The notes beneath the pieces were generated by a model. That model was not told the origin of the DNA. It saw nothing but the letters and a program-made list of their open reading frames with translations, and did not search any database. This document shows positions 1,311-61,770 of a DNA stretch of 64,000 nucleotides, piece after piece. A program made the translations under genes and the position numbers. Source of the DNA: Isurus oxyrinchus (lineage: Eukaryota); contig JANJGN010000013.1 of NCBI GenBank assembly GCA_026770705.1, positions 105,524,001 through 105,588,000 of the forward strand, given 5' to 3'. Position 1 is the first letter of the stretch. Each line of letters opens with the position of its first letter.

Positions 1311-2879
1311 TTGCGAATTGTATGTTAACATGTTAAAAGTTATTATGACTATCAAATCTCATCACTTAAAGGCTCAGAAACTTTTATATTTTGATGTTTA
1401 AGATTCTAATTTTAAGGTTATCTATCTTTGCATGTTAAATGTGAATGGAAATATTCTATATCACCTGATATGATTTTGCTGCTTCTGGTCAATTTCTTTT
1501 AACTCTTTCATGAGATACGGGAATCGCTGGCAAAGCCAGCATTTGTTGCCCATTCCTAAATGCCCTTTACATGCTATTTAAAAAATGACTGCATTCCTGT
1601 CATATATTGACAACAAGTTACATTTATATAGTGCCTTTAATGTAGAAAAATATCCTGAGGTGCTTCACTAAGGTGTAATCAATCAAAAATGCACTGCTAC
1701 AAGCAGGAAGATATTATGGAAGGTGATGGAAGGCTAAATTGAATAAATGAGTTTTAAAGGGATGCCTTAAAGCTGGAGAGGGAGGTGGAGACATTAAAGA
1801 ATTTAGGGAGGGGAATTCATTGAGTGGGACCTGGTACAGATTCTTGAGGGACATCACTTATCATACCTCACCCAATCAAAGTACCCTTCACAACTATTCT
1901 GTCTCCTACCTAAATAAATTGCCAACCCACAACACAAGGGTTGCCTCTATTTCCATGTATTTTTGGGGTTTTTTTGCCATTAACATATGAACTTAAGAAA
2001 AAGGAATAGGAGTAGGCCTGGAACCTCTTCCACCATTCAATAAGAACATGGCTGATCTTCTATCTCAGTTCTACTTACCCACCCTATACCCATATCCATC
2101 GATTTCCTTAAAATCCAATCTCTAAATGGCAGTGGGATACAGATTAGCCAGGAGGGGGTGGGGGTGGGGATGGGGTGGTTGGTGATGCACATACTGAGAC
2201 AGCATGAATCAGGGCAACATCTGGCTTAAAATTGGTCTGGAAGTGGCAGCTGGTCAGTCAGTGCAGCATAGTTCAGGTGGCAAGAGGCTACTGACTGGTA
2301 CCATAGGAAGGCTTGCCAACAAGAAGGCAAGTCATAGGGAACAGATTTCAGATGGACGTTGTAGAAAGAGGAGGAAATGGGGTGGGAGCCCAGGCAGGAC
2401 AAGGGGAGACCTAAACTTGATTTTCTTTTTCTTCCACTGGCCCAATACAAAAGTTTTAAAACTTATTTTAAATGGTGTCTTCTGGTTCCAGATCCTTTAC
2501 TCATTGTCTTCACCTGTCAGGATTGCAGCAGAGGCTACTCCACTAAGACCAGAGTTTAAATTACAGTTGAGGCCCAATCATGTCTTGAGACCCCAATCTG
2601 CATGTTTGAAGAAGGACCCTGCTGGCTTCAGGCATGCACTCTTGTCACAGCTCTAGAGAGCAAACTAAAACAGAAGAGAGCTGGATTACATTGCCGCTAA
2701 GTGATCAAGGTTGATTTTAATTGCCTATCTGCCTGGTTTCTGCTGGACAGGTTAAAGTTAAAATCACCACCCCTCCATATATGTGATATTTTTATTATTA
2801 TTAGTAAGATATCCGTGACATATAGAAGCAATAATTTTTTAATATTATTACCACTATCATGTGAGATACAGGAGCATTG

Positions 2880-3695
2880 TATGACACAATATTAAGGGGG
2901 TTAGACAAAGATTGATGAGGCCTTCAGGAACACAATAACAACAGATACAATTTAAATATAGAGCAGTGTCTTGAGGAAAAAAATGAATGGGATTATACAG
3001 TTAATGGAAAACAAGATGGACAAGATCTGGGGATTTATATACATCATTTCATAATAAGAGAAGTGCAGGTGGAGAATGCTGTAACAGGGTATTTTGTTAT
3101 ATATTTAGAAAAGGGGGCATAGAATACACGAGTAAAGAAGTAACGCTGAATTTGTACAAGACAATGGTTGTACAATGTACACAATTAGAACTCAATAGTT
3201 TTGGACATCACATTATAGAAAAGTCATACAGTACAAAATTGAATTCACCAGGGTGACATCAGAATAGGAAACTACAGTCATCATGAGAGACTTAAAGGTA
3301 CTGGGAATTGACAACACACAGCAAGTTAAGAGATTTAGTGAAGGTTTCTAAAAAACATAGAGAGTTTTGCTGAAGTGAAAAGAGAAAGACTATTTCCTCT
3401 GGTTGAACAATCAGTGATGAGAGGTCATCAATTAAAAATTGTTATTAAGAGAGTGAGAGGAGAGGTTAAAAAGAATTTGCACAGAAAGTTGTTGGGGCAT
3501 TCGTGTTTTGTCACAGGGAATGTTGAGACAGAGATAATTGTATATTGTCAGGGAACTTTGGAAAAGTATTTGAAAAAAACAGGGAGATATGAGGCAAAGA
3601 GAAAATGGAATTAGTTTAGAATTGCTCTAGCAAGGAGTAGGCACAGGCAGGATATACTGAATGGCCTCCATCTAATCTTAAAACTATGATCATAT
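2880..3695 (+). mobile_element. Old CR1 LINE 3' fragment
   Basis: RERLFPLV..S.MRGHQLKI motif and CR1-type 3' UTR. Confidence 0.7.
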
Positions 3696-3861
3696 GACTC
3701 ATGCCAATATATCATTATTAATACGGGTAGTATCACTGTAAAATATAAGAGCATTACATTAATGTAGACATGATTGTTAAGTGTCAGCACAGTTCAATGG
3801 TAGCACTTTCAGAGTCAGGTCATGCGTTCAAGTTCCACCACAAGAATAAGCCTATAATCTA

Positions 3862-3995
3862 AAAGCAAAAAACTGCGAATGCTGGCAATCCGAAACAAAA
3901 ACAAAAATATCTGGAAAAACTCAGCAGGTCTGACAGCATCTGCGGAGAGGAATACAGTTAACGTTTCGAGTCCATATGACTCTTCACCAGAACAA
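3862..3995 (-). mobile_element. Short Penelope-like (family A) terminal-repeat insertion inside a tRNA-SINE head
   Basis: Homologous to 21588-21725 and 34188-34327; flanked by direct repeat CCTATAATCTA (3851-3861 and 3996-4006). Confidence 0.8.
3957..3993 (-). ncRNA. Minimal hammerhead ribozyme-like motif (family A, variant core)
   Basis: Minus strand GUU-CUGGUGA-A-GAGUC-AUAUG-GACUC-GAAA-CGUU-AAC; palindromic AACGUU at stem III. Confidence 0.6.
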
Positions 3996-6009
3996 CCTAT
4001 AATCTAGTTTTGTGTAGCTGTTAAAGTGAAGGTCAGATACTTGTCCTAACAATACTCAGTGTCACATAACAATGGATGTAAATAACAATGGAAATAAAGT
4101 AATTGATTACAATTTAAAATGGATGAGAACCACAGTTTAAGAATTGGAGTGAATGGGAGGTAATCTTTGTATACTATAATTGTGTGGTTGGATCAGTTGC
4201 ACATTTAGAAATTTTACTTTTAGGCTCAGACCTGTTTTTGGCCTTCATTAGTGCCAGCCTGAAATTGGTTTCCAGAGTTTGTGTGCTTCCCCTTCTCATG
4301 TTCCCTTCTTCCATGTTTCAACTGTGTCACTACTCTGCAGGATGCAGCCACCTCAGCAATCACTGACCTATATATTCACTAGACTCTTTTAAAGACTTTC
4401 ATTATTTATTGCAGTTTGTCTACATTTTGTACTCTTTCTAGATCTGTAAAAGATTTAGATCTTCTGGTCCATATTCTTCCCTGCCAGTGTGCACAGTGTA
4501 TGATTTCAACAGCATTTAACGCTCTGCATGCCATATCGAATTTTAATTATTGCCATGAGCTTGTAATCTACTAAAGGAAGACAAGACAGAATCAAATACA
4601 ACAGGATTCCAGGTAAAACACATATGGTACTTCCTTAAAAACAATTTAAATTTTAATTTCAATGCTGTAATAAATTCTATTGTATACAGCACATATACTT
4701 AATAAAACAAGAACAAGATTATATTCTTCAACAATTATAGTTGATTTCTAAGCTGTCCATTCTAAATTAGACTTCAGCTCTGGTGTAATTCTGAGGTATG
4801 CATTGTTGTGAAACGAATATTAACACAGACGTTCACTGTTACATCAGGCATACTGGAATTTCATAGAGGCACAGAAAAGCTACTCTAAATGCATTGGTAA
4901 GGAAATATCTCTTTCTCAACCAAGCATTACACTGTATCATACTTTTGGCTGGAAGAATTAGTAATGAAGCCAAAGAGATAGAATCATTGCATTTACAGCA
5001 CAGGAGGCCTTTCAGCCCTTTAGGGACAGGTTCAGATGGAGAGCAGGGTTTATACGGAAAGCAGGGCTGCCTGTGTAAAGGGTAAAACTGTGCTAGTGCT
5101 CACTCTTCAGCTGCAACCACCTGGTCTAATTAAATTTCTTTGCCCTTCCACCACCACTCCAATATTCTCACTCTGCTAATACCTGTTCAATTGTTTTTTT
5201 TTATATATATGATCTACAGATTTTCTCTCAGTCCCCCACCACACAACCACAAAAGTGTGCTACACCTACAGACGGAGCAGTGCCATTCGGTTTTCTGACC
5301 CAGGTGTTTTCCCATGACCCATCTCCCAGGAGCCTCACACTGGCAATGGTAGCCACAAACAGTGGGTCTGAGAGGCCACTGAAATAACCAGAAGGTCCCA
5401 AGGCTTGAAAATTTTATTTGGGGCATGTGGGAGCCAGCAAGACTGCTGCAACTTGAATCTTCAGGATGCTCGATGGTACTCCACAGGTTTTGTGGGGTGA
5501 GGGTCACTGCCATTTGGGAATCTCAGGAAATCCTGGGGCAGTATAATGGGGTGGGGATTGAATGTAACAGGTCTCCACCTCCATTTCATCTACACCTGTA
5601 AACTAAGTGATTCCTAGGTGCCATACCATTATCTCTACCTCAATAGCCAATTTCTTTACACATCCCAATAGCTTGTGTGGAAAAAAAATCTAACTTCCCT
5701 CTTCATTCTTCTATACATAATTCTCAATCTATTTCCCCTTGCTACTCATTTGTCAACCAGTTTTGCCACCTACCCTCTCAATTCTTGCATTACTTTAACT
5801 CCTGTTAGAACCCTCCCCTCAAAACTTTTCAGCTTTCTTCATAGCTTTAACCCCTCACTCCCAGTACCGTAGTTGTAAAATCACAAAATGCAGGAAACTC
5901 TGACAAGGATACAATTTAGTGTCCATCACTAGTTGCCATGGGAAGATAGGGGTGGCACTTTTTCTTGAACTACTGCATTCCTAGTGAATTCTATTAAACC
6001 TTAGCTGTT

Positions 6010-8240: not shown

Positions 8241-8592
8241 GTGGTGGCGTAGTGGTAATGTTACTGGATTCGTAATCCAGAGGCCCTGGCTAATGCTCAC
8301 AACAACAGCTAATGGAATTTGAATTCAGTTCATAAATCTAGAACATAAAAAGTAATGGTGACCATGAAGCCATTGTTGACTGTCGTTAAAAACCCATCTG
8401 GATCACTAATGTCCCATTAGGGAAGGAAATCTGCCATCTTTACCCAGCCTGGCCTACATGTGACTCCAGACCCATTGCAATGTGCTTGACTCTTAACTGC
8501 CCTCTGAGCAAGCCACTCAATTCAAGGGCAGTTAGGGATGGGCAACAAATGCTGGCCTTGCTGACGACACCCACATCCCGTAAATGAATAAA
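8241..8592 (+). mobile_element. tRNA-headed SINE made of the 5' and 3' ends of the 45263-48487 LINE
   Basis: A box TGGCGTAGTGG; body matches 45270-45560, then jumps to the LINE's last ~70 nt (CAAGGGCA..CCCGTAAATGAATAAA); B-box segment deleted in this copy. Confidence 0.85.
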
Positions 8593-15756: not shown

Positions 15757-16073
15757 TTTTCATTTGTTCATGGGATGCAGGCATCACTGGCTAGGCCAGC
15801 ATTTATTGCCCATCCCAAATTGCCCTTGTTCAGAAGGCATTTAAGAGTCAACCACATTGCTGTGGGTCTGGAGTCACATGTAGTCCAGACCAGGTAAGAA
15901 TGGCAGATTTACAATCAGCAATGGTCTTCATCAGACTTTCAATTCTATTGTCAATAGATTTAAATTTCCCCATCTACTGTGGTGGGATTTAAACCACACT
16001 CCCCAGAGCATTACCCTAGGTCTCTAGAATGCTACTCCAGTAACAATACCGTTATGCTGCCACCACCTCCCCT
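15757..16073 (-). mobile_element. Second copy of the LINE-ends SINE
   Basis: Reverse complement matches 8241-8592 and both ends of 45263-48487. Confidence 0.8.
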
Positions 16074-18609: not shown

Positions 18610-20933
18610 TTGATAATGTTAATTAGCCGAAATGTCTTCTCTGCAATGGAAACTTGGCTTAAAGAGGGGCAAAAATGGCAGCTTAGCATCCATGGATATA
18701 GAGTTTTCCAGCAGGATGGAGAAGGGGATAAAAAAGGTGGGGATGTAGCAACATTGGTTTAAAGAAACAATTACAGTTGTGAGAAGATGATATACTAAAT
18801 GAAGCACAAAATGAGGTCATATCAGTTGAGTTCAGGAATAAAAAAGGGGCAGCCACATTGCTCAGAGTGTACTATAGACGCCCAAATAGTGGAAGGGAGT
18901 TAGAAGAGCAAATATGTAGGCAAATTTCTGAGTGCAAAAACAATAGGACTGTATTAGTTGGAGACTTCAACTATCCTAATATCAATTGGGATACAAACAG
19001 TGTGAAGGACACAGAGGGCACAAAATTCTTGAACTGCATTCAAGAGAACTTTTTCAGCCAGCATGTAACAAATACAATGAGAGGGGGCGCAATTCTAGAT
19101 TTAGTCTTAGGAAATGAAGCTGGGCAAGTGGATCAAGTAGCAGTAGGGGACCATTTTAGGGATAGTGACCATAATACAGTTAGATTTAGCATCATTATGG
19201 AAAAGGACAAAGATAGAACAGGAGCATAAGTTCTAAGTTGGGAGAAGACAAATTTTGCAAAGCTGAGAGGTGAACTGATGAAATGACTGGATGCAGCTGC
19301 TAGAAGGAAAACTGTCAAATCAGTGGGAGGTTTTCAAAAGCGAGATTCTAGGGGCACAGTGTAATCGTGTCCACACAAAGAAAAACGGTGGTACTGCCAA
19401 ATCTAGAGCCCCCTGGTTATCCAGCAGCAGGCAGGGTAAGATAAAGCAGAAAAAGAGAGTTTATGACAGTCATAAAATGCTTAATGCCATAGAAAGCCTA
19501 GTGTAGAGAAAGTACAAGGGTGAAATAAAAAAGGAAATTACGAAAGCAAAGAGAGGATACGAAAAAACATTGGCAGGTAAAATCAAAGAAAACCCAAATA
19601 TGTTTTACCAGTACATTAAGAACAAGAGGATAACTAAGAAAAGGGTAGGGCTAATAGTAACCTGTGCATTGACGCTGAAGATGTGGGCAGGGTTCTTAAT
19701 GAGTACTTTGTCTCTGTCTTCTCTAAGGAAAGAGATGATGCAGACATTCTAGTTAAAGAGGGAGAGTTCAAAATGTTAGATACAATAAGCATAATGAGAG
19801 AGGAAATACTGGAGGGACTGGCATCCTTGAAGCTGGATAAATCACTAGGGTTGGATGGATTGTACCCCATGTTGTTAAAGGAAGCCAGGGAGGAAATAGT
19901 GTATGCTCTGAGGATCATTTTCCAACCATCACTAGATACAGGCAAGGTACCAGAGGATTGGAGCTCTGCGAACATTGTACCATTAATTAAAAAGGGATAG
20001 GTCAGAAAATCATAGACTGGTCAGTCTGACTTTGGTGGTGGGAAAATTATTGGAATCAATTCTGAGAGACAGGATAAACTGTCACTTAGAAAGGCACAGA
20101 TTGATTAGGGATTGTTAGCATGGCTTTGTTAGGGGAAGATTGTGTTTTACTAACTTAATGTAATTTATGAGGAAGTAATAAGGAGGATTGATGAGGGTAG
20201 TGCAGTAGATGTTGTCCACATGAATTTTAGTAAGGCATTTGACAAGGTCCCACATGGCAGACTGGTCAGAAAAGTGAGACGCCATGGGATACAGGGGAAG
20301 GTGGTGAATTAGATCCAAAATTGGCTCAGTGACAGGAAACACAGGGTAATGGTCAATGGATGTTTTTGTGAGTGGAAAGCGGTTTTCAATGGCGTTCCAC
20401 AGGGCTCAGTGTTGAGGTCCTTGCTGTTTGTCATATATATTAGTGATTTGGACTTAAATGCAGGAGGCATGATTGGGAAATTTGCAGAAGACACAAAGAT
20501 TGGCCGCATAGTTGATAGTGAAGAGGATAGCTGTTGTCTCCAGAATAATATCAATGGTTTGGTCGAGTGGATGGAAAGTGGCAGATGGAATTCACCCAGA
20601 AAAGTGTGGCCTAAGTTTGGGGAGGGCAAACAAAGCAAGGGAATAGTCAATAAACGGGAGGATATTGAGAGGGGTTGAGGAAGTGAGAGACCTGGGGATG
20701 TATGTTCACAGGTCCCTGAAGGTGGCAGAACAGCTGGACAAGGTGGTAAGGAAAGCATTTGAATGCTTTCCTTTATTGGATGAGGTACTGAATGAAAAAG
20801 CAGGGATGTAGTGGTGGAACTGTATAAAATGCTGGTTAGGCCACAGTTGGAATTTTGTGTACAGTTCTGGTCAGCACATTACAGAAAGGACATAATTGCT
20901 CTGGGGAAGAGTACAGAGGAGAATTACAAGAAT
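18610..20933 (+). mobile_element. CR1 LINE ORF2 remnant (APE endonuclease + RT), 3' end missing
   Basis: VYYRRPN, VGDFNYPNINW, ILDLVLGN, SDHNTV; RT GVPQGSVL, KFAEDTKIG, LVRPQLEFCVQFW; many stops and frameshifts. Confidence 0.92.
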
Positions 20934-21725
20934 GCGGTCTCCTCTACATTGGTGAGACTAAATGCAGACAGGATGACCACTTTGCGGAACACCTTCACTC
21001 AGTCCACAGGTATGACCCAGACCTTCCTGTCACTTGCCATTTCAACACACCACCCTCCTCTCATGCCCACAGGTCTGTCCTTGGCCTGTTGCAATGTTCC
21101 AGTGAAGCTCAACGCAAACTGGAGGAACAGCACCTCATCTTCCAATTAGGCACTTTACAGCTTTCCGGACAACATTGAGTTCAACAACTTCAGACCATGA
21201 ACTCTTTCCTCCATCTTCACCCCCTTTATAAATCCAGTATTTATTTATTTATTTATTAATTTTATTCTTTTATTTATTTGTTCATTTAAAAAAAATTCTT
21301 TTTCCCCTTCCCTGCTCTCCCTCACAGGACCATCTGTCACTTGTTTGTATGTTTTGCTTTCACAGAATGCTGACCCTTGTTCTGCTGCTAACACCTTCTG
21401 TTATCTTACCTTTATGCCATTATGAGCACCTTCTTCACTCTTCACCAGGACCATTAACACTCCTTTTGTCCATGACATCTTTGTCAATCTCTCTTTAGCT
21501 GTCACTTATTGCTGGCCTTCTATCTCGTTCCACCTGCTCCACCCCCTCTTAAACAGTATAAAATCCGTCACATTTCTACTTCTATTTAGTTCTGAAGAAG
21601 AGTCATATGGACTTGAAACATTAACTCTGTTTCTCTCTCCACAAATACTGCCAGACCTGCTGAGTTTTTCCAGCATTTTCTGTTTTTATGTCAGATTTCC
21701 AGCATCCACAGTATTTTGCTTTTAT
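20930..21725 (+). mobile_element. Penelope-like (family A) 3' fragment: GIY-YIG endonuclease end plus terminal repeat
   Basis: CGLLYIGETK..FAEHL..RKLEEQHLIFQLGTLQ; TATAAA at ~21557; hammerhead motif downstream. Confidence 0.9.
21588..21626 (+). ncRNA. Minimal hammerhead ribozyme motif (family A)
   Basis: AGUU-CUGAAGA-A-GAGUC-AUAUG-GACUU-GAAA-CAUU-AACU: CUGANGA and GAAA core, stems I and II pair. Confidence 0.7.
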
Positions 21726-23574: not shown

Positions 23575-24595
23575 TTTTTTTCATTCATTCATGGGATGTG
23601 GGCTGGGCCAGCATTTATTGCCCATCCCTAATTGCCCTTGAGAAGGTGGTGGTGAGCTGCCTTCTTGAACTGCTGCAGTCCATGTGGTGTAGGTACACCC
23701 TCAGAAAGGGAGTTCCAGGATTTTGACTAAGCAACAGTAAAGGAACAGCGATATATTTCGAAGTCAGAATGCTGAGTGGCTTGGAGGGGAACTTCCAGGT
23801 GGTAGTGTTCCATGTTTCTGCCACCCTTGTCCTTCTAGATGGTAGCAGTCATGGTTTTGGAAGGTGCTGGCTAAGGAGCCTTGATGAGTTCCTGCAGTGC
23901 ATCTCGTAGATGGTACACACTGCTGCCATTGGTGGTGGAGGAGTGAATGTTTGTGGATGAGGTGCCAATTAAACAGGCTGCTTTGTCCTGGATGGTGTCA
24001 CGCTTCTTGAGTGTTGTTGGAGATGCACTCATCCAGGCAAGTGGAGAGTATTCCATCACACTCCTGACTTTTGCAGATGGTGGACAGGCTTTGGGTAGTC
24101 AGCAAGTGAGTTACTTGCCACAGGATTCTTAGCTTTGGCCTGCTCTTGTAGCCACAGTATTTATTTGGCTAGTCCAGTTCAGTTTCTGGTCAATGGTAAC
24201 CCCCAGGATTTTGATAGTAGGGGTTTCAGTGATGGTAGTGGCATTGAATGTCAAGGGGTGATGGTTAGATTCTCTCTTGTTGGAAATGGTCATTGCCTGA
24301 CACTAGTGTGGCCCAAATATTACTTGCCATTTGTCAGCCCAATCCTGGATATTGTCCAGTTCTTGCTGTATTTGGACATGGACTGCTTTAGTATCTGAGA
24401 AGTCGTAAATGGTGCTGAACATTGTACAATCATCAGCAAACATCCCCACTCCTGACCTTATGATGGAAGAAATGACATTGATGAAGTAGCTGAAGATGGT
24501 TAGGCCTAGGACACTACCCTAGGGAACTCCAGCAGTGATGCCCTGGAACTGAGAGATTGACCTCCAACAACCACAACCATCTTTCTTTGTGCTAG
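23575..24595 (-). mobile_element. 3' ~1 kb of the tRNA-headed LINE family
   Basis: Reverse complement aligns with 47440-48487 (MEYSPLAWM.A.PTT.KK.D.IQDKAA); tail ATGAATGAATGAAAAAA. Confidence 0.9.
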
Positions 24596-24874
24596 ATTGT
24601 GAAATGGTACATGGAACTGAGAGTAAAAACATATAATTATCTGTACAATTTTGCAAAATAAGTGAAAGCACTTCAAATTACCTATAAAATTTTACATAAT
24701 GAATTAATATAAAGTGTCATCATATTTCTATCTCTCTCCAGTGCTGAAGAAGAGTCATGTTGGACTCAAAACATTAACTCTGTTTCTCTCTCTAGAGATG
24801 CTGCCAGACCTGCTGAACTTTTCCAGCATTTTTGGCTTTTATTTCAGATTTCCAGCATCTTTGAAAAAAGAGAT

Positions 24875-31430: not shown

Positions 31431-33473
31431 AAAAGAGACCCTCAATTGAGGACTTGGATTCTGGGCGGGAGGACTGCCTGCTACCTTTCCTGCCATTAGC
31501 AAAAATGGCATGGCAGCAGAAAGATGTTGGGCCCGCCACCCAACACCATCCCATGCCATTTTGCCAGCCTTGCCATCTCTAACCCCATCCACAAAGGGCT
31601 GTAAAATCCCAGCTGTTAGTTTAAATTCCACCATGGCAGCGAGACGAATGTAAATTGAAATTAATCTGTTTAAAGAACAGGATTCTTTCTCCATGGCAAT
31701 GCCTTGACTAATCAGATCCAAACTGCCTGGTTTAAATTTGAAACAAAAGCTTGATAATTAACTGGTCTCTGCTACATTTCCCATGGCAACGCCTCTACAA
31801 ATCAAAGTCCACTTGCCAACCAATCAGCACTCGCTTCTCATGCAGTTGTTCTCTTTACTGTTGGTATATTCTTGTGAAACAAAAACAGAATTACCTGGAA
31901 AAACTCAGCAGGTCTGGCAGCATCGGCGGAGAAGAAAAGAGTTGATGTTTCGAGTCCTCATGACCCTTCGACAGAACTTGAGTTCAAGTCCAAGAAAGAG
32001 TTGAAATATAAGCTGGTTTAAGGTGTGTGAGGGGGTTGGGGGGGGCGGAGAGAGAGAGAGAAGTGAAGGGGGGTGTGGTTGTAGGGACAAACAAGCAGTG
32101 ATAGAAGCAGATCATCAAAAGATGTCAACAACAATAGAACAAAAGAACACATAGGTGTTAAAGTTGGTGATATTATCTAAACAAATGTGCTAATTAAGAA
32201 TGGATGGTAGGGCACTCAAGGTATAGCTCTAGTGGGGGTGGGGAGAGCATAAAAGATTTTAAGATAATTAAAAATAATGGAAATAGGTGGGAAAAGAAAA
32301 ATCTATATAATTTATTGGAAAAAAAAGGAAGGGGGAAACAGAAAGGGGGTGAGGATGGGGGAGGGAGCTCAAGACCTAAAGTTGTTGAATTCAATATTCA
32401 GTCCGTAAGGCTGTAAAGTGCCTAGTCGGAAGATGAGGTGTTGTTCCTCCAGTTTGCGTTGGGCTTCACTGGAACAATGCAGCAAGCCAAGGACAGACAT
32501 GTGGGCAAGAGAGCAGGGTGGAATGTTAAAATGGCAAGTGACAGGGAGGTTTCGGTCATTCTTGCGGACAGACTGCAGGTGTTCTGCAAAGCGGTCGCCC
32601 AATTTACGTTTGGTCTCTCCAATGTAGAGGAGACCACATTGGGAGCAACGAATGCAGTAGACTAAGTTGGGGGAAATGCAAGTGAAATGCTGCTTCACTT
32701 GAAAGGAGTGTTTGGGCCCTCGGACGGTGAGGAGAGAAGAAGTGAAGGGGCAGGTGTTGCATCTTTTGCGTGGGCATAGGGTGGTGCCATAGGAGGGGGT
32801 TGAGGAGTAGGGGGTGATGGACGAGTGGACCAGGGTGTCCCGGAGGGAGCGATCCCTACGGAATGCCGATGGGGGGATGAAGGGAAGATGTGTTTGGTGG
32901 TGGCATCATGCTGGAGTTGGCGGAAATGGCGGAGGATGATCCTTTGAATGCGGAGGCTGGTGGGGTGATAAGTGAGGACAAGGGGGACCCTATCATGTTT
33001 CTGGGAGGGAGGAGAAGGCATGAGGGCGGATGCGCAGGAGATAGGCCGGACATGGTTGAGGGGCCTGTCAACGACCATGGGTGGAAAACCTCGGTTTAGG
33101 AAGACAGGGCCCTCAACCGTGTCCGGCCTATCTCCCGCGCATCCGCCCTCACGCCTTCTCCTCCCTCCCAGAAACATGATAGGGTCCCCCTTGTCCTCAC
33201 TTATCACCCCACCAGCATCCGCATTCAAAGGATCATCCTCCGCCATTTCCGCCAAATCCAGCATGATGCCACCACCAAACACATCTTCCCTTCACCCCCC
33301 CATCGGCATTCTGTAGGGATCGCTCCCTCCGGGACACCCTGGTCCACTCCTCCATCACCCCCTACTCCTCAACCCCCTCCTATGGCACCACCCCATGCCC
33401 ACGCAAAAGATGCAACACCTGTCCCTTCACTTCCTCTCTCCTCACCGTCCAAGGGCCCAAACACTCCTTTCAA

Positions 33474-33803
33474 GTGAAGCAGCATTTCACTTGCATTTCC
33501 CCCAACTTAGTCTACTGCATTCGTTGTTCCCAATGTGGTCTCCTCTACATTGGAGAGACCAAACGTAAATTGGGCGACCGCTTTGCAGAACACCTGCGGT
33601 CTGTCCGCAAGAATGACCCAAACCTCCCTGTCACTTGCCATTTTAACACTCCACCCTGCTTTCTTGCCCACATGTCTGTCCTTGGCTTGCTGCATTGTTC
33701 CAGTGAAGCCCAACGCAAACTGGAGGAACAGCACCTCATCTTCCGACTAGGCACTTTACAGCCTTCCGGACTGAATATTGAATTCAACAACTTTAGATCG
33801 TGA
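33474..33803 (+). pseudogene. GIY-YIG endonuclease domain of the 5'-truncated Penelope-like ORF (mirror copy 32369-32698, minus strand)
   Basis: VYCIRC..C..LYIGETKR..RF.EH and terminal LNIEF motif; RT core absent. Confidence 0.9.
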
Positions 33804-34187
33804 GCTCCCTCCCCCATCCCCACCCCCTTTCTGTTTCCCCCTTCCTTTTGTTTCCAATAAATTATATAGATTTTTCTTTTCCCACCTATTTCCATTATTT
33901 TTAAATACCTTAAAATCTTTTATGCTCTCCCCACCCCCACTAGAGTTATACCTTGAGTGCCCTACCATCCATTCTTAATTAGCACATTTGTTTAGATAAT
34001 ATCACCAACTTTAACACCTATGTGTTCTTTTGTTCTATTGTTGTTGACATCTTTTGATGATCTGCTTCTATCACTGCTTGTTTGTCCTTACAACCACACC
34101 CCCCCTCCACCTCTCCCTCTCTCTCTCCGCCCCAACCACACACCTTAAACCAGCTTATATTTCAACTCTTTCTTGGACTCGAACTCA

Positions 34188-34226
34188 AGTTCTGTCGAAG
34201 GGTCATGAGGACTCGAAACATCAACT
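34188..34226 (+). ncRNA. Hammerhead-like motif with variant core CUGUCGA (mirror copy 31940-31978, minus strand)
   Basis: AGUU-CUGUCGA-A-GGGUC-AUGAG-GACUC-GAAA-CAUC-AACU. Confidence 0.55.
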
Positions 34227-34340
34227 CTTTTTTTCTCCGCCGATGCTGCCAGACCTGCTGAGTTTTTCCAGGTAATTCTGTTTTTGTTTTGGATTTCCAG
34301 CATCCGCAGTTTTTTTGTTTTTATCTCTATATTCTTGTGA

Positions 34341-34439: not shown

Positions 34440-35200
34440 AAGCTGGAATTGAAAAAGCTGGTTTCAGTAGAAATGCTCATGGAACTATCAGAATTTGTAA
34501 AAACTGATTCACTGATGCCTTTTAGGGAAGGAAATCTACCATCCTTAACTGGCCTGGCACTTATGTGACTCCACACACATAGCAATGTGGCTGACTCATA
34601 GCTGAAATGACCTAGCAAGCAACTCAGTTGTATCAAACCACTACAGAAAAGTCAAATAAGAACCGGGTGGACAACCCGGTATTGACCTAGGCATTGGAAA
34701 CATCAAAAGCACACCCTGCTCAGTCAATCCTGCAAAGTCATCATCAGTAACATGTAGGGACTTGTGACAAAATTAGGGGACGTGTCCCACAGACTAGCCA
34801 AGCAACAGCCTGACAAACTCACTGAATTATATCTTGTAGCTCACATTCCAAACTCCTTCATCACCATTCCTGGATATGCCCGTCAGACTAGAGATGAGGG
34901 CACAGCTGTATACATTCAGGAGGGAGTGCCTCTGGGAGTCCTCAGTATTGACTCCAGACCTAATGAAGTCTCATGAAATCACCTGGACATGAAAACCTCC
35001 TGCTCCAGCTGGTTACCACCTACAGCCCATCAGCTAATGAATATGTTCCTCCATGTTGAACAGCACATGGACAAAGCACTGTGGATTGCAAGAGCACAGA
35101 ATGCAAACTGGAAGGGAGAGCTTCAATGTCCATCCCCAAGAATAGCTTGATAGCACCAATACTGACCGAGTTGGCCGAGTACTAAAGCCAGACTGGGCCT
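34440..35200 (+). mobile_element. Decayed 5' part (UTR + endonuclease) of the tRNA-headed LINE family
   Basis: Aligns with 45385-46175 (SHRLAKQQPD, ITIPGY, LGVLSIDS). Confidence 0.8.
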
Positions 35201-42494: not shown

Positions 42495-42880
42495 AAATTC
42501 TTTCACAGGGTGTGGACACCTCTGGCTAGGGCAGAACTTGTTCCCAATCTTAATTGCCGTTGAGGAAGTGGTGTTGAACTACCTTCTTGAACTGCTGCAG
42601 TTTCAGTAGTGCAGTTACACCCAAAGTGTTGTTCGGGAAGGAATTCCAGGGTTTTGACTCAGCGTCAGCGATGTGTGCCTTTGCAGGTGGTGGTGTTCCC
42701 ATACATCTGCTGCCCTTGTCCTTCTCGGTGGTAGTAGGTGCTATTGAACTATTGGTGAGTTGCTGCAGTGCATTTTGTATATGGTACACATTGCTGCTAC
42801 AGTGAGTTGGTGGTGGAGGGAGTGAATGTTTAAGGTGGTGGATGGGTTGCTGATCAAGTGGGCTGCTTTGACCTGGTTAA
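42495..42880 (-). mobile_element. 3' fragment of the tRNA-headed LINE family
   Basis: Matches 23575-24000 in the same orientation. Confidence 0.75.
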
Positions 42881-45262
42881 TGCCTCTGTGGGATATTTTA
42901 CTATGCCAAAAATGCTATATAAATGCAGGATGTTATTCTAACCAATTGCAATAGAGAATTGTTTTTGTTATTTTCCAAATGTTTTCCCTAGGGTTTTTAT
43001 ACACCATATTTTTGGTTCTCTATATGATCTGCACACAAGACTGCAGAGTGGGCTTTCGCCTCACTAGATATTTCTGGGCTTTTCCCAGCAGAACTGCCAA
43101 ACTGCGCTTCTGCCTAATTTTGGAATCCCTTCCTGATGGTGATAACCTAACTTTGATACTAAAATGTTAGCCTTGTACAGTAACAATGCTTGTCCTGTAT
43201 TCCACGCATATTAATGCTTGCTCTGTACAGTCTTTATTTGATGTGATGCACCTCATCTCAGCCATCTCAACTTGATTAGAAAGAAACTCCAAGTGGTAAG
43301 CGTGACTGGTTTTAATGTTTAAGAACAAACATGCACTCTTTGCTGACTCCATTAGTTATTTTTGGAATCACACATAAAATCCTACCCTTATGCTGGGATC
43401 TGACTGTCTCTAAGTTATGACATAATGGTGTGCAACATACTGGTAATTAATCCATTTTCCCTCTCCTTCCTTCCCGCCACAGCATCCACCCCCGCTCCCA
43501 GCCCAACACGCTTCCCCTCATCAGATTAGGCTGCTGGCCCCTTCCCAAGGAACCATTAGCTATCTCCAGCTGGCACTAAAGTGAGGAAGCGCTGAAAGCT
43601 GCTGCTGGTAACTCTATGTTTACCAGTGCTACAAGGCTACAAGGTTACATTTCTCAAAAACATATGGACTCTCACAGCTCAAAATTATTGGCAACTTTAG
43701 CATGTATCTGATCCAACTTGTATCTTTATGACAGCTATGCAGCTTCAGTACCATGACTGAGAAATTTCAAATATGTATTTTAAGGAATCTATTGTATTAC
43801 GAAATCCTGTGAATAGGGAATAGAAATAAACCACTGCATCTGGAAAACCTCTTAAATGTCAGATTACAGTATCTTCACTGTTGCTAATAGCAAAATGACA
43901 GAAGTTAATTTCAAAATGCCCCATCGTTCTCCTCAAGATCTTTCTAGCAACCCTTGATTATTGCAATCCTGAAAATGAATTGTAAGGTACCCAAAAGACA
44001 AAATATTGCAGGGGCTGGAAATCTGAAAACGTGAATGGACAAGCTGGAAATACTCAGCAGGTCAGGATGCATCTGTGGAAAATAAGTCAGTCGGCTGACA
44101 TTTCAGGTCTCGAGTATTTCCGTCTTTTTTTGTTTCGCAAGCTACCTAAACTAGATACATGAATGCTTGTAATTAAAATCAAATACATAAATTAAGACAG
44201 CTCAGTGTCATAGCACGTAGGTATATATTAAGTGTTTTTATTCTCACAAAATGCAGTGTACTATTTATTATTTAAAAGCCATTGGGATTCGAGGTGAAAA
44301 GTGCAAATTAATAAAGCCAATAGTTTAATTTTTTTTTACTGTTTACCCTATTTGATAATGGGGATTTTTTACATGTTAGTTCATATTGAATTACATAAGC
44401 AAAGGAAAATTTACCCTCACGGACAGTTGGACAATGCCACAAAAGGCACTGAAATAGGAGAAAGATGAAGAGATAGAGAACTTTTCTTTTCAACAGTAGG
44501 ATATGTACATACATACAATCATTTTAAATCTGTAAAAAGAAACAGAAATGGCACACTGCTGAGTTATCAATTGATAGGAATTGATGCAAGAAGCGATGTT
44601 AAATATATCAAGGTTGAATGATAACTCCAAACATTTTTAGACTGGGTCACAAACTCTGTATATCAAAAACCTAAAATGTTCTCTAAGCAAAATCAAGTTC
44701 ACAAAGTTATTAATTAACCAAAGTTACATTTTTTCTTGACAAAAAGGCAGAAAACCTATGGTTATGTAAGCAGTGTACCTTACAAGTACTTTTCTTGGAG
44801 GAAATAACAAGAATTCACAGGGGAGGAGGAAGGCAATTTCTTATGTCCAAGTCAAAAAGGGTACAGAAGACCCCAAAGAATCTAACATAAGCATCCAGGT
44901 TTAAGTATCTAGACATGTAATATTTAGGTTCTTTGAGGTTAATATCTCAGTGGTCCTTGTTAACTTGGCTACATATTTTAATCTTTTTTAGTTTGCTTGG
45001 AGGAGCAAATAGAAAAATAGCAGTGTAGTTTAAACCTAGTTAACAGCAAATATATAAATAATCACTTCAGCTTGAATTTTCACAAGGCGGAAAGGGCTCT
45101 ATGCCTTAGACAAAATGGCGCCAGAGCTGGAATCGGAGGTCCCGCACCCAGAACCCAGCACCCACCATTTTCACGGGTCGGGTGGCGGGGGGTGGGGGGG
45201 TTTAGTGAAAAGCTGGCGTGGGACATTTTTCACAGATCTGTGGTTCAGAGAGGCAGCCTAAA

Positions 45263-48200
45263 GGGAGGCAATGGCGTAGCGGTATTGTTACAACACTAGT
45301 AATTCAGAGACCCAGAGTAATGCTCTGGAAACCCGGGTTTGAATCCTGCCTCGGTAGATGGTGGAATTTGATTTCAATAAAAGTCTGGAATTAAAAGTAT
45401 AATGATGGCCATGAAACCATTGTTGACTGTCATAAAGACCCATCTGGTTCACTAATGTCCTTTAGGGAAGGAAATCTGCCATCCTACATGTGACCTCAGA
45501 CCCACAGCAATGTGGTTGACTCTTAAGTGGCTTCTATAATGGCCTAGCAAGCCACTCAGTTGTATCAAACTGCTACAAAGTCTCAAAAAAGGAATGAAAC
45601 TGGACGGGCCACCTGCACAGACCTAGGCACCAGAAATGACAATGGCAAACTCAGCCCTGTCAACCGGTGCAAAGTCCTCCTTATTGACATATGGGGGCTA
45701 ATGCCAACACTGGGAATGCTGTCTCACAGGCTAGTCAAGCAACAGCCTGACATAGTCAGCCTCATGGAATAATACCTTATAGATAATGTCTCAAACACCA
45801 CCATCACCATCCCCGGGTATGGCCTATCCCACTGACAGGCCAGACGCAGCAGAGGTGGCAGCACAGTGGTATACAATCGGACGGGAGTTGTCTTGGGAGT
45901 CCTCAACATCGACTCTGGACCCCATGTAGTCTCATGGTATCAGGTCAAAGATGGGCAAGGAAACCCCCAGCTGATTACCACCTATCACCCTCCCTCAGCT
46001 GATGAATCTGTGCTCCTCCATGTTGAACATCACCTGGACGAAGCACTGAGAGTGGCAAGGATGCAGAATGTACTCTGGCTGGGGGACTTCAATGTCCATC
46101 ACCAAGAGTAGCTCGGTAGCACCACTACTGACTGAGCTGGCCGAGTCCTAAAGGACATAGCTGCTAGACTGGGTCTGTGGCAGGTGGTGAGGGAACCAAA
46201 AACACGCTTGACCTCATCTTCACCAAACCGCCTGCCGCAGATACATCTGTCCATGACAGTATTAGTAGGAGTGACCACCGCACGGTCGATGTGGGGACGA
46301 AGTCCTGCCTTCATATTAAGGACACCCTGCATCATATTGTGTGGCGCTACCAACGTGCTAAATGGGATAGATTTCAAACAGATCTAGCAACTCAAGATTG
46401 GACATCCATGAGGCACTGTGGGCCACCTTGAGCAGTACTCTAACACAATCTGTAACCTCGTGGACCGGCATATCCCTCACTTTATCATTACCATCAAACC
46501 AGTGGATCAACCCTGGCTCAATGAAGAGTGCAGGACGGCATGCTAGGAGCAGCAACAGGCATACCTGGTGAAGCTATAACACAGGACTACTTGCGTGCCA
46601 AACAGCATAAGCTGCAAGCGATAGGCAGAGCTAAGCGATCCCAAAGCCAACGGATCAGATCTAAACTCTGCAGTCCTGCCACATCCAGTCGTGAATGGTG
46701 GTGGAAAATTAAACAACTAACTGGAGGAAGAGGCTCCACAAAAACTCCATTCTCAATGATGGGCGAGCCCAGCACATCAGTTCAAAAGGTTAGGCTGAAG
46801 CATTTGCTACAATCTTCAGCCAGAAGTGCGGGTGGATAATCCATCTCGGCTCCTCCAGAGGTCTCTAGCATCAAAGACGCCAGTCTTCAGCCAATTCGAT
46901 TCATTCCTCGTGATATCAAAAAATGGCTGAAGGCACTGGATACTGCAAAGGCTATGGGGCCAGACAATATTCCGGCAATAGTACTAAAGACTTGTGCTCC
47001 AGAACTTGCCGCGCCCCTATCCAAACTGTTCCAGTACAGCTACAACACTGGCATATACCCGGCTAAGTATAAAATTGCCCAGGTGTGTCCTGTACACAAA
47101 AAGGACAAATCTAACTAGGCCAATTAAACCCCATCAATCTACTCTCAATCACCAGTAAAGTAATAGAAGGGATCATCAACAGTGCTATCAAGCAGCACTT
47201 GCTCAGCAATAACCTGCTCACTGACGCCCAGTTTGGGTTCTGCCTGGACCACTCAGCTCCTGACCTCATTACAGCCTTGGTTCAAACATGGACAAAAGAG
47301 CTGAATTCCCAAGGTGAGGTGAGAGTGACTGCCCTTGACCTCAAAGCCGCATTTGACTGAGTGTGGCATCAAGGAGCCCTAGCAAAACTGGAGTCAATGG
47401 GAATCAGGGGGAAAACTCGCCACTGGTTGGAGTCATACCTAACACAAAGGAAGATGGTTGTGGTTTTTGGAGGTCAGTCATCTCAGCTCTAGGACATCAC
47501 TGCAGGAGCTCAAGGTAGTGTCCTTAGCCCACCCATTTTCAGATGTTTCATCGATGACCTTCCTTCCATCATAACGCCAAGTGGGGGTGTTCACTGATGA
47601 TTGCACGTTGTTCAGCACCACTTGCGACTCCTCAGTTAGTGAAGCAGTTCATGTCCAAATGCAGCAAGATCTGGGCAATATCCAGGCTTGGGCTGACAAG
47701 TGGCAAATAACATTCGTGCCACACAAGTGCCAGGCAATGACCACCTCTAACAAGAGAGAATTCAAGCATCGCCCCTTGACATTCAATGGCATTACCATCA
47801 CTGAATCCCAATTAACAATATCCTGGGAATTATCATTGATCAGAAACTGAACTGGACTAGCCATATAAATACCGCGGCTACAAGAGTAGGTCAGCGGCTA
47901 GGAATCCTGCAATGAGTAACTCACCTCCTGGCTCCTCAAGGCCTGTCCACCATCTACAAGGCACAAGTCAAGAGTGTGATGGAATACTCCCCACTTGCCT
48001 GGATGAATGCAGCTCCCACAACATTCAAGAAGCTTGACAGCATCCAGGACAAAGCAGCCCGCTTGACTGGCACCACATCCACAAACATTCACTCTGTCCA
48101 CTCACCACCGAACCACAGTAGCAGCAGTGTGTACCATCTACAAGATGCACTACAGGAATTCACCAAGGCTCCTCATACAGCACCTTCCAAACCCACAGCC

Positions 48201-48487
48201 ACTACCATCAGAAGGCCAAGGGCAGTAGATAGGTGGGAACACCACCACCTGGAATTTCTTCTCCAAGTTACTCACCACCCTGACTTGGAAATATATTGCT
48301 GTTCCTTCACTGGTGCTGGTTCAACATCCTGGAACTCCCTCCCTAACAGTACTGTGGGTGTAATTACACCACACGGACTGCAGTGGTTCAAGAAGACAGC
48401 TCAACACCACCTTCTCAAGGGCAACTAGGGATGGGCAATAAATGCTGGCCCGGCCAGTGAAGCCCATATCCCGTGAATGAATAAAAA
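45263..48487 (+). mobile_element. Apparently full-length ~3.2-kb CR1-group LINE: tRNA-derived head, single decayed EN+RT ORF, no ORF1
   Basis: EN motifs VLLIDIWGL, QPDIV, GDFNVHH, LDLIFT, SDHRTV; RT motifs KAMGPDNIP, QFGF, ALDLKAAFD, QGSVL.P, FTDDC; tail GAATGAATAAAAA. Confidence 0.9.
45272..45346 (+). promoter_or_regulatory. Pol III type-2 internal promoter (A and B boxes) at the LINE 5' end
   Basis: A box TGGCGTAGCGG (45272-45282), B box GGTTTGAATCC (45336-45346), intervening hairpin CCAGAG-TAATG-CTCTGG. Confidence 0.7.
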
Positions 48488-61264: not shown

Positions 61265-61770
61265 CAAACTCACCTGGATGAGTGCAGCTCCAACAACACA
61301 CAAGAAGCTTGACACCATCCAGGACAATGCAGCCCACTTGATTGGCACCCCATCCACCACCTTCAACATCCACTCCCTCCACCACTCTCACATAGTGGCA
61401 GCAATGTGTACCATCTACAGAATGTACTGTAGCAACTCATCAAGAGTCCTTCTACAGCACCTTTCAAACCTGCAACATTTACCACCTAGAAGGAAAAAGG
61501 TTAGCAGATGCATAGGAACACCACCTCCTGCAAGTTCCCCTCCAAGCCAAATACCACCCTGACTTGGAATTATATTGCCGCTCCTTCACTGATGATGGGT
61601 CAAAAACCTGGAACTCCCTTCTTAACAGCACTGTGGGTGTACCTGCATCACATGGACTGCAGCGGTTCGAGGCAGCGGCTCACCACTACCTTTTCAAGGA
61701 CAATTAGGATAGGCAATAAAAATGCTGGCCTAGCCAGTGAGGCCCACGTCTCATGAAAGAATATAAAAAA
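61265..61770 (+). mobile_element. 3' fragment of the tRNA-headed LINE family
   Basis: WMSAAPTTHKKLDTIQD; aligns with 47990-48487. Confidence 0.85.

Follow-up and report, generated by a model that had tools for sequence, protein, structure and literature searches.

A tRNA-headed elasmobranch Zenon LINE as a probable Pol III-transcribed, protein-coding retroelement

In the usual division of retroelements, LINEs are transcribed by Pol II and code for protein, and SINEs are transcribed by Pol III and are non-coding. Vertebrate Pol III terminates at runs of four or more T (T4 runs).

According to the accessible part of Stuart et al. 2026 (PMC13343379), elasmobranchs, hagfish and the coelacanth carry Zenon LINEs, every one of which lacks ORF1 and ends in a poly-A tail. 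The elasmobranch members named there (CarCar_, RhiTyp_, ScyCan_, HypSab_ and SquAca_Zenon) resemble the element studied here in having no ORF1, an endonuclease plus reverse transcriptase (APE+RT) frame, an A-tail and, for CarCar_Zenon-1, a similar length. In the same partial source, and in L253, the sole non-shark DNA that we obtained from the nearest clade, the non-elasmobranch Zenon/CR1-Zenon elements (hagfish, coelacanth, L253) likewise combine a single APE+RT ORF with an A-tail. Unlike shark Zenon, L253 starts with an AUG in good context and has T-runs.

Other systems share single traits with the element. R2 is an autonomous non-LTR element thought to avoid Pol II and cap-dependent translation, through Pol I co-transcription and a proposed IRES, but it lacks an own promoter and is confined to rDNA (available part of PMC2881922), whereas Zenon is a dispersed element with an internal promoter that is Pol III-like, of type 2. 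The RTE/Vingi SINEs of Kojima 2018 (PMC5786205, as excerpted) also consist of LINE 5' and 3' parts behind a tRNA head; in that model a derivative that is already deleted and non-coding acquires the head, its parent LINE being a Pol II element, while in Zenon the coding parent carries the head. In excerpts of PMC8466645 and PMC10572872, the T+ SINEs B2, Dip and Ves resemble Zenon in their Pol III head, an AATAAA near the end and a T-run followed by an A-run, but they are short and non-coding, whereas Zenon is long and has the T-run in a minority of ends. MetaSINEs have a Meta-domain following a tRNA-Thr-like head; the Zenon head is tRNA-Thr-like, and by eye the Zenon body did not resemble the bivalve Meta sequences of a partial set. 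Set against the definition of a tRNA-derived SINE (SINE2), Zenon has the tRNA head with A and B boxes and is neither short nor non-coding (3.3 kb, with a selected ORF).

The window element and its family

The window is the whole analysed stretch of 64,000 nt of Isurus oxyrinchus (GCA_026770705.1, JANJGN010000013.1:105,524,001-105,588,000, forward strand). The element at 45263..48487 is a dead, decayed copy of an abundant elasmobranch Zenon, a single-ORF autonomous LINE of ~3.3 kb. Its parts and its relatives in the window are as follows.

45263..45352, plus strand: head derived from tRNA-Thr(AGT), from the sequence, the alignment with own-genome tRNA-Thr and the sharp family 5' boundary
45272-45282, 45296-45302 and 45336-45346, plus strand: A box, anticodon-loop remnant CTAGTAA and B box of the head
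Between the anticodon-loop remnant and the B box, plus strand: hairpin insert of ~20 nt in the variable region of the head
45353..45561, plus strand: non-coding body, common to the derived SINEs; a small hairpin at its end adjoins the open frame
45548..48428, plus strand: single APE+RT reading frame with a basic N-terminal stretch and without a start AUG; stops and frameshifts in the window copy
45671..46290 (approximate limits), plus strand: apurinic-type endonuclease domain, from the translation and from Pfam matches PF14529 and PF03372 on copy L034
47070..47840 (approximate limits), plus strand: reverse transcriptase domain with FADD motif, from Pfam match PF00078 on copy L028
48429..48487, plus strand: short 3' UTR, common to the SINEs, carrying a predicted stem-loop, (GAAT)n, an A-tail and, ~45 nt before its end, AATAAA
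34504..35187, plus strand: older copy of subfamily E, body joined to the start of the APE, 70% identical
8245..8592, plus strand: SINE family 1, in which head plus body reach family position 310 and continue with the last codons and 3' UTR (position 3211)
15757..16070, minus strand: SINE family 2, in which subfamily-A-type head plus body reach position 287 and continue at position 3212
23575..24595, minus strand: 5'-truncated copy, 81% identical, no sense T4 run
61273..61767, plus strand: 3' fragment, 77% identical
42497..42876, minus strand: older 3' fragment, 66% identical

The anatomy put forward in the original prediction was borne out. Both boxes of the tRNA-like head are present at the positions given above, the invariant C of the B box showing a CpG-type C>T change; the APE+RT frame, placed about 400 nt after the start, has its first endonuclease strand at ~45671, 408 nt from the start of the element; and the family has a single APE+RT ORF without ORF1, as judged from the majority line and Pfam. 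The predicted stem-loop of the 3' UTR has a fold z of -1.9.

To collect copies, we used the 5' portion of the ORF, head excluded, as a query against the animal's own 4.98-Gb genome. Among 11,764 first-look candidates 40 were scored, and all 39 non-self matches were retrieved, including two near-duplicates (L001 and L004). The family 5' boundary is sharp, at a G-run, and 23/39 copies start within 25 nt of it, 26/39 within 50 nt and 37/39 within 200 nt. Full-length copies had been expected to start at the head with target duplications; the 26 copies agree with the start, and the 40 copies, which are 6-8% diverged, showed no consistent target duplications, apart from some short candidates in a few of them. 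The flanks diverge directly after the A-tail, which ruled out that the element inserts site-specifically into a SINE.

Majority line A was built from 29 colinear loci and the window copy (n = 30), leaving out 10 short or rearranged loci. It is 3.29 kb long, with one APE+RT frame of ~975 codons that is broken only at CpG-decay sites, and, CpG-type sites aside, the copies share 91-96% identity with it. By eye it also matches, with a handful of differences, the available first 400 nt of CarCar_Zenon-1 (3,288 characters). A search for the second subfamily with 34640-35187 as query returned only family A; subfamily E became accessible through a diagnostic pattern. Of the 29 pattern matches one was the window's own copy, and the other 28, all old, gave the E majority line, which was reference-guided on A with an ORF coverage of 5-22 and is thus not fully independent of it. 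Line E is 93% identical to A, carries the head and has neither a T4 run nor a TTT across a codon boundary. Between A and E, pN/pS is 0.24 over 973 codons; purifying selection thus acted on the ORF during its time behind the tRNA head. No intact copy was found among the best 150 of 432,513 protein-match candidates, the longest open frame being 636 aa, so the family appears dormant in this genome. Some copies are rearranged, by internal duplication, 3'-part transposition or inversion (L013, L024, L029), and in L034 (oriented locus, 2237-4042) a 602-aa open frame of another retroelement, which we take to be Penelope-like, interrupts the Zenon copy.

The head aligns with two own-genome tRNA-Thr(AGT) genes (L246, L248) over A box, anticodon loop and B box, with the 20-nt hairpin as an insert. 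For the window, neither ARAGORN nor Rfam called the head, and the body was likewise unrecognised. In L252, a natural head variant without the insert that continues into the ORF, ARAGORN calls tRNA-Thr; this variant (L245, L247, L249-L252) is found on LINE-length and on SINE-length copies. All seven published elasmobranch Zenon consensuses (five species) open with the head in the portion available. Head, body and ORF move as one unit, and the question whether the head is an independent SINE on a few copies is settled by its place in 26/39 copies and 7/7 consensuses. The head is absent from the first 400 nt, the portion available, of two hagfish and one coelacanth Zenon consensuses, and had no BLAST match in 160 non-shark loci. 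ARAGORN made no tRNA call on 59 and 26 relative loci, many of them on contigs without a 5' end; these blanks are weak evidence because ARAGORN also missed the window head, and for most invertebrate relatives the 5' ends lie outside the visible sequence.

The element has the traits of Zenon (no ORF1, a single APE+RT ORF, a poly-A tail). Its nearest named protein relatives are crustacean (Penaeus), and crustacean elements are the nearest relatives of Zenon also in the available part of Stuart et al. (PMC13343379). In a tree without named Zenon references, its RT groups with single-ORF proteins of ~940 aa, one cluster of which is named Penaeus, with low support at the nearest node (0.33-0.46). 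The family and its lack of ORF1 are already known, ORF1 loss being a clade trait, and the ORF1-less family of the original prediction is not novel, being described as elasmobranch Zenon (PMC13343379). The main text of that paper has no occurrence of 'tRNA' or 'polymerase III'; its accessible part, which for the supplement is the first 400 characters, showed no mention of the head, the avoidance of T-runs, the lack of an AUG or the SINEs derived from Zenon. Pol III-type anatomy of Zenon was not found in the literature searched, which excluded Repbase, Dfam and most subscription journals, nor were Zenon sequence motifs found in paper full texts. This anatomy appears to be undescribed.

T-runs on the sense strand

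The 3,225-nt element has exactly two sense T4 runs (at 47464 and 47536), the number originally counted by eye, and both fall inside the reverse transcriptase domain. The majority line of 30 copies lacks these two and any other T4 run, and thus both arose after insertion. As had also been claimed, the paralogue at 23575-24595 has no sense T4 run, and the ordinary CR1 at 18610-20933 has 12 (at least ten had been claimed). As a statistic, the T4 count against CR1 is weak, because the conventional, AUG-started relative L253 has only one T4 run in its ORF.

The main control holds the protein and codon usage fixed (synonymous permutation). Line A has no T4 run and seven TTT runs, versus 47 AAA, 49 CCC and 40 GGG runs. 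In its ORF, T4 is at 0 versus 2.1 expected (P = 0.085) and TTT at 4 versus 13.0 expected (0/5000 permutations). TTT across codon boundaries is at 0 versus 11.2 expected in A (0/1000 permutations) and 0 versus 11.6 in E, and this zero holds in every third of the ORF. Windows with four T in five positions number 1 versus 11.2 expected in A (P = 0.001) and 1 versus 10.6 in E. Runs of A, C and G are at expectation in the permutation test, and the deficit is T-specific. A first-order Markov control leaves both T3 (P = 0.084) and T4 (P = 0.18) short of significance; this control absorbs much of the T-run signal because TT itself is depleted. Copies acquire T4 runs after insertion (mean 0.88, 26 copies). 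T-run avoidance in Zenon is real, family-wide and selected. For the claim that selection had made the family T4-poor, this means that the avoidance of TTT and near-T4 survives the controls for composition and codons, while the T4 count itself is weak.

Neither majority line, A or E, has an internal T4 run or near-terminator on the sense strand, as a Pol III unit should not. Human Pol III terminates also at degenerate T5-like signals (PMC3141230, part of the text), which fits the loss of near-terminators in Zenon. Phe makes up 1.8% of the Zenon protein, below all 120 homologues among the matches listed; selective Phe loss at conserved columns is not supported, 9/15 being kept, similar to other residues.

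In order to compare shark Zenon with other LINEs, we applied the same counts to a shark CR1 majority line (20 copies), which is normal (11 T4 runs versus 11.2 expected), and to non-shark relatives with an ORF of at least 450 aa (72/80 metagenome loci and 76/80 MAG-contaminant loci, n = 148). None of the 148 is without T4. Their observed/expected ratio for cross-codon TTT has a median of 0.96 in the metagenome loci and a minimum of 0.35 overall, versus 0.0 in Zenon, and their minimum for four T in five is 0.61, versus 0.09 in Zenon. L253 has 20% T, T5 and T6 runs in its 3' UTR and 6 TTT versus 13 expected (P = 0.024). T-runs are also significantly depleted in L315 and L317 (11 versus 31 and 25 versus 41 expected), in which no head was seen. 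With a T-poor L253 and the T-run-depleted, headless L315 and L317, the clade seems pre-adapted, and shark Zenon seems to be its extreme and not a lone exception. Both L315 (1498-3531) and L317 (1318-3399) are invertebrate-type LINE ORFs in MAG contigs, with T4 at 1 versus 8.4 and 4 versus 11.6. Animal LINE contigs of this kind (L253-L332) lie inside many bacterial and archaeal MAGs as host contamination; no relatives were found in viral contigs.

Start of translation and derived SINEs

Upstream of the endonuclease, both majority lines have 12 AUGs, none of which opens into the ORF, and the first in-frame Met of the ORF is codon 291. In full-length relatives a Met mostly lies near where the frame begins. 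At codon 6, 20/53 copies have an in-frame TAA, which is visible in dogfish consensuses too, and the whale-shark consensus, read by eye, has a one-base shift at this site; these place the ORF start beyond family position 315. Translation must start between this position and the first endonuclease strand at 420. The region around 315 adjoins the hairpin at the end of the body and precedes a basic stretch that resembles the N-termini of homologues. A start at AUG 343 (family position) with a frameshift is not required, this AUG being out of frame and missing from subfamily E. The predicted N-termini of P0128, P0133 and P0135 (GLATQHS) resemble the translated body-end hairpin of the shark element (GLASHS), a hint that the nearest invertebrate Zenons have some of the body in common with it.

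Because the ORF has no AUG, non-canonical translation is needed under either polymerase. The original claim of cap-independent translation holds to this extent. Dicistrovirus-type IGR IRESs are structured, pseudoknotted elements that end directly at a non-AUG first codon. The position of the body fits such an element; its folding gave no signal above shuffles (fold z near 0), it has no Rfam match, and 1/12 predicted pairs covaries in a model that does not cover pseudoknots; these results lend no support to an IRES structure. L1 ORF2 is translated by AUG-independent reinitiation after an upstream ORF, and for Zenon reinitiation would be as plausible as internal ribosome loading.

Two SINE families consist of the Zenon 5' end joined to the Zenon 3' end. 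In family 1, 12/12 copies join at or beside family positions 310/3211, with heads mixed between A and E; in family 2, 25/25 copies join near 287/3212, with A-type heads. They yielded 11,196 and 8,410 first-look candidates, respectively, and the SINE-type joint is present in assembled contigs, also covering the element, of four runs from four organisms, which we guess to be RNA runs. Deletion alone would suffice for the origin of these SINEs from Zenon.

Among 103 ends, 71 begin with an A-run, 18 have a T-run and then an A-run, 2 a T-run otherwise and 12 neither. T4 or longer stands directly before the A-run in 16/90 ends versus 3.1% of flanking A-runs (given at least one T, in 16/63 ends versus 8.8%), and internal A-runs have TTT in 2/334 cases. 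The T-run before the A-run could come from target DNA or from A-tail instability.

Transcription readings and their consequences

A tRNA-type promoter, the lack of T-runs and the absence of a normal start codon point to a protein-coding Pol III element, and elasmobranch Zenon is, in our view, quite probably a Pol III-transcribed autonomous LINE with non-canonical, likely non-AUG, translation. The main rival, a reading that we think rather unlikely but which must be weighed, is that of a LINE that captured a SINE 5' end as a new 5' UTR, is transcribed by Pol II from the head region or a flanking promoter, inherited its scarcity of T-runs with the composition of its clade and is translated from capped RNA by reinitiation or from a non-AUG start. 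LINEs frequently replace their promoters, and these are generally Pol II promoters (PMC2881922, in the part available); the nearest relative L253 is T-poor, the headless L315 and L317 are T-run-depleted, and the T4 deficit alone is not significant. All of this agrees with Pol II, yet it leaves unexplained a cross-codon TTT loss that is complete, T-specific, extends over the whole length and goes far beyond the 148 relatives. Moreover, the A and B boxes are kept in five species, the same head drives two ORF-less SINE families, and cap-dependent scanning is poorly compatible with the 12 upstream AUGs.

We find still less likely a split cycle, in which the Pol III RNA is reverse-transcribed, as for a long SINE, and rare Pol II read-through of copies embedded in host genes supplies most of the protein. 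It would account for the head and the avoided T-runs with no need to translate an uncapped RNA, and the 3' stem-loop common to the SINEs supports mobilisation in trans; however, purifying selection on the ORF of amplifying lineages is easier to understand if one and the same RNA is copied and translated, and an ORF without AUG would still not be conventionally translated from Pol II RNA. That independent SINE insertions or the building of the consensus produced an artefactual junction of head and ORF might be suspected from the great abundance of SINEs with the same head (the candidate counts above), but the junction is seamless and identical in single copies, in two subfamilies and in the consensuses of five species, which refutes this explanation and leaves it hardly any probability.

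On the Pol III reading, the sequences make it fairly likely, on balance, that a shark/ray LINE lineage switched to Pol III, with a terminator-purged 3.3-kb message, cap- and AUG-free translation that begins directly after the SINE body, and SINEs arising repeatedly by simple deletion. A T-poor, ORF1-less Zenon ancestor would have acquired a SINE-type head, and Pol III transcription would then have purged terminators and near-terminators from the sense strand. The end-to-end Pol III transcript would terminate in a T-run that coincides with the 3' end or follows it, and might then receive a poly(A) tail. Uncapped, it would take ribosomes internally or be translated by reinitiation after an upstream ORF; the Zenon protein would bind the 3' stem-loop and copy the RNA via target-primed reverse transcription, and internal deletions of Zenon would yield ready-made SINEs.

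An elasmobranch family, present in five species, with kept A and B boxes, purged T-runs and no AUG would break the division between LINEs and SINEs. If this reading is true, Zenon RNA would be a natural Pol III mRNA, long and translated; the conserved SINE body would gain a testable job, ribosome loading; and there would be a direct route from LINE to SINE, with SINE origin in one step.

The window also holds repeats outside the Zenon family. At 31877-34289 lies a near-perfect palindrome of ~2.4 kb, with 1,005-nt arms that are 97% complementary, additional outer arms of 153 nt at 99%, a 33-nt spacer and some CR1-like sequence; it may have arisen by a recent fold-back duplication or in the assembly, as an artefact. 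A further short repeat family, likewise abundant, occurs in both orientations at 21608-21706, 24761-24859, 34206-34304, 3861-3993, 31876-31977 and 43994-44091.
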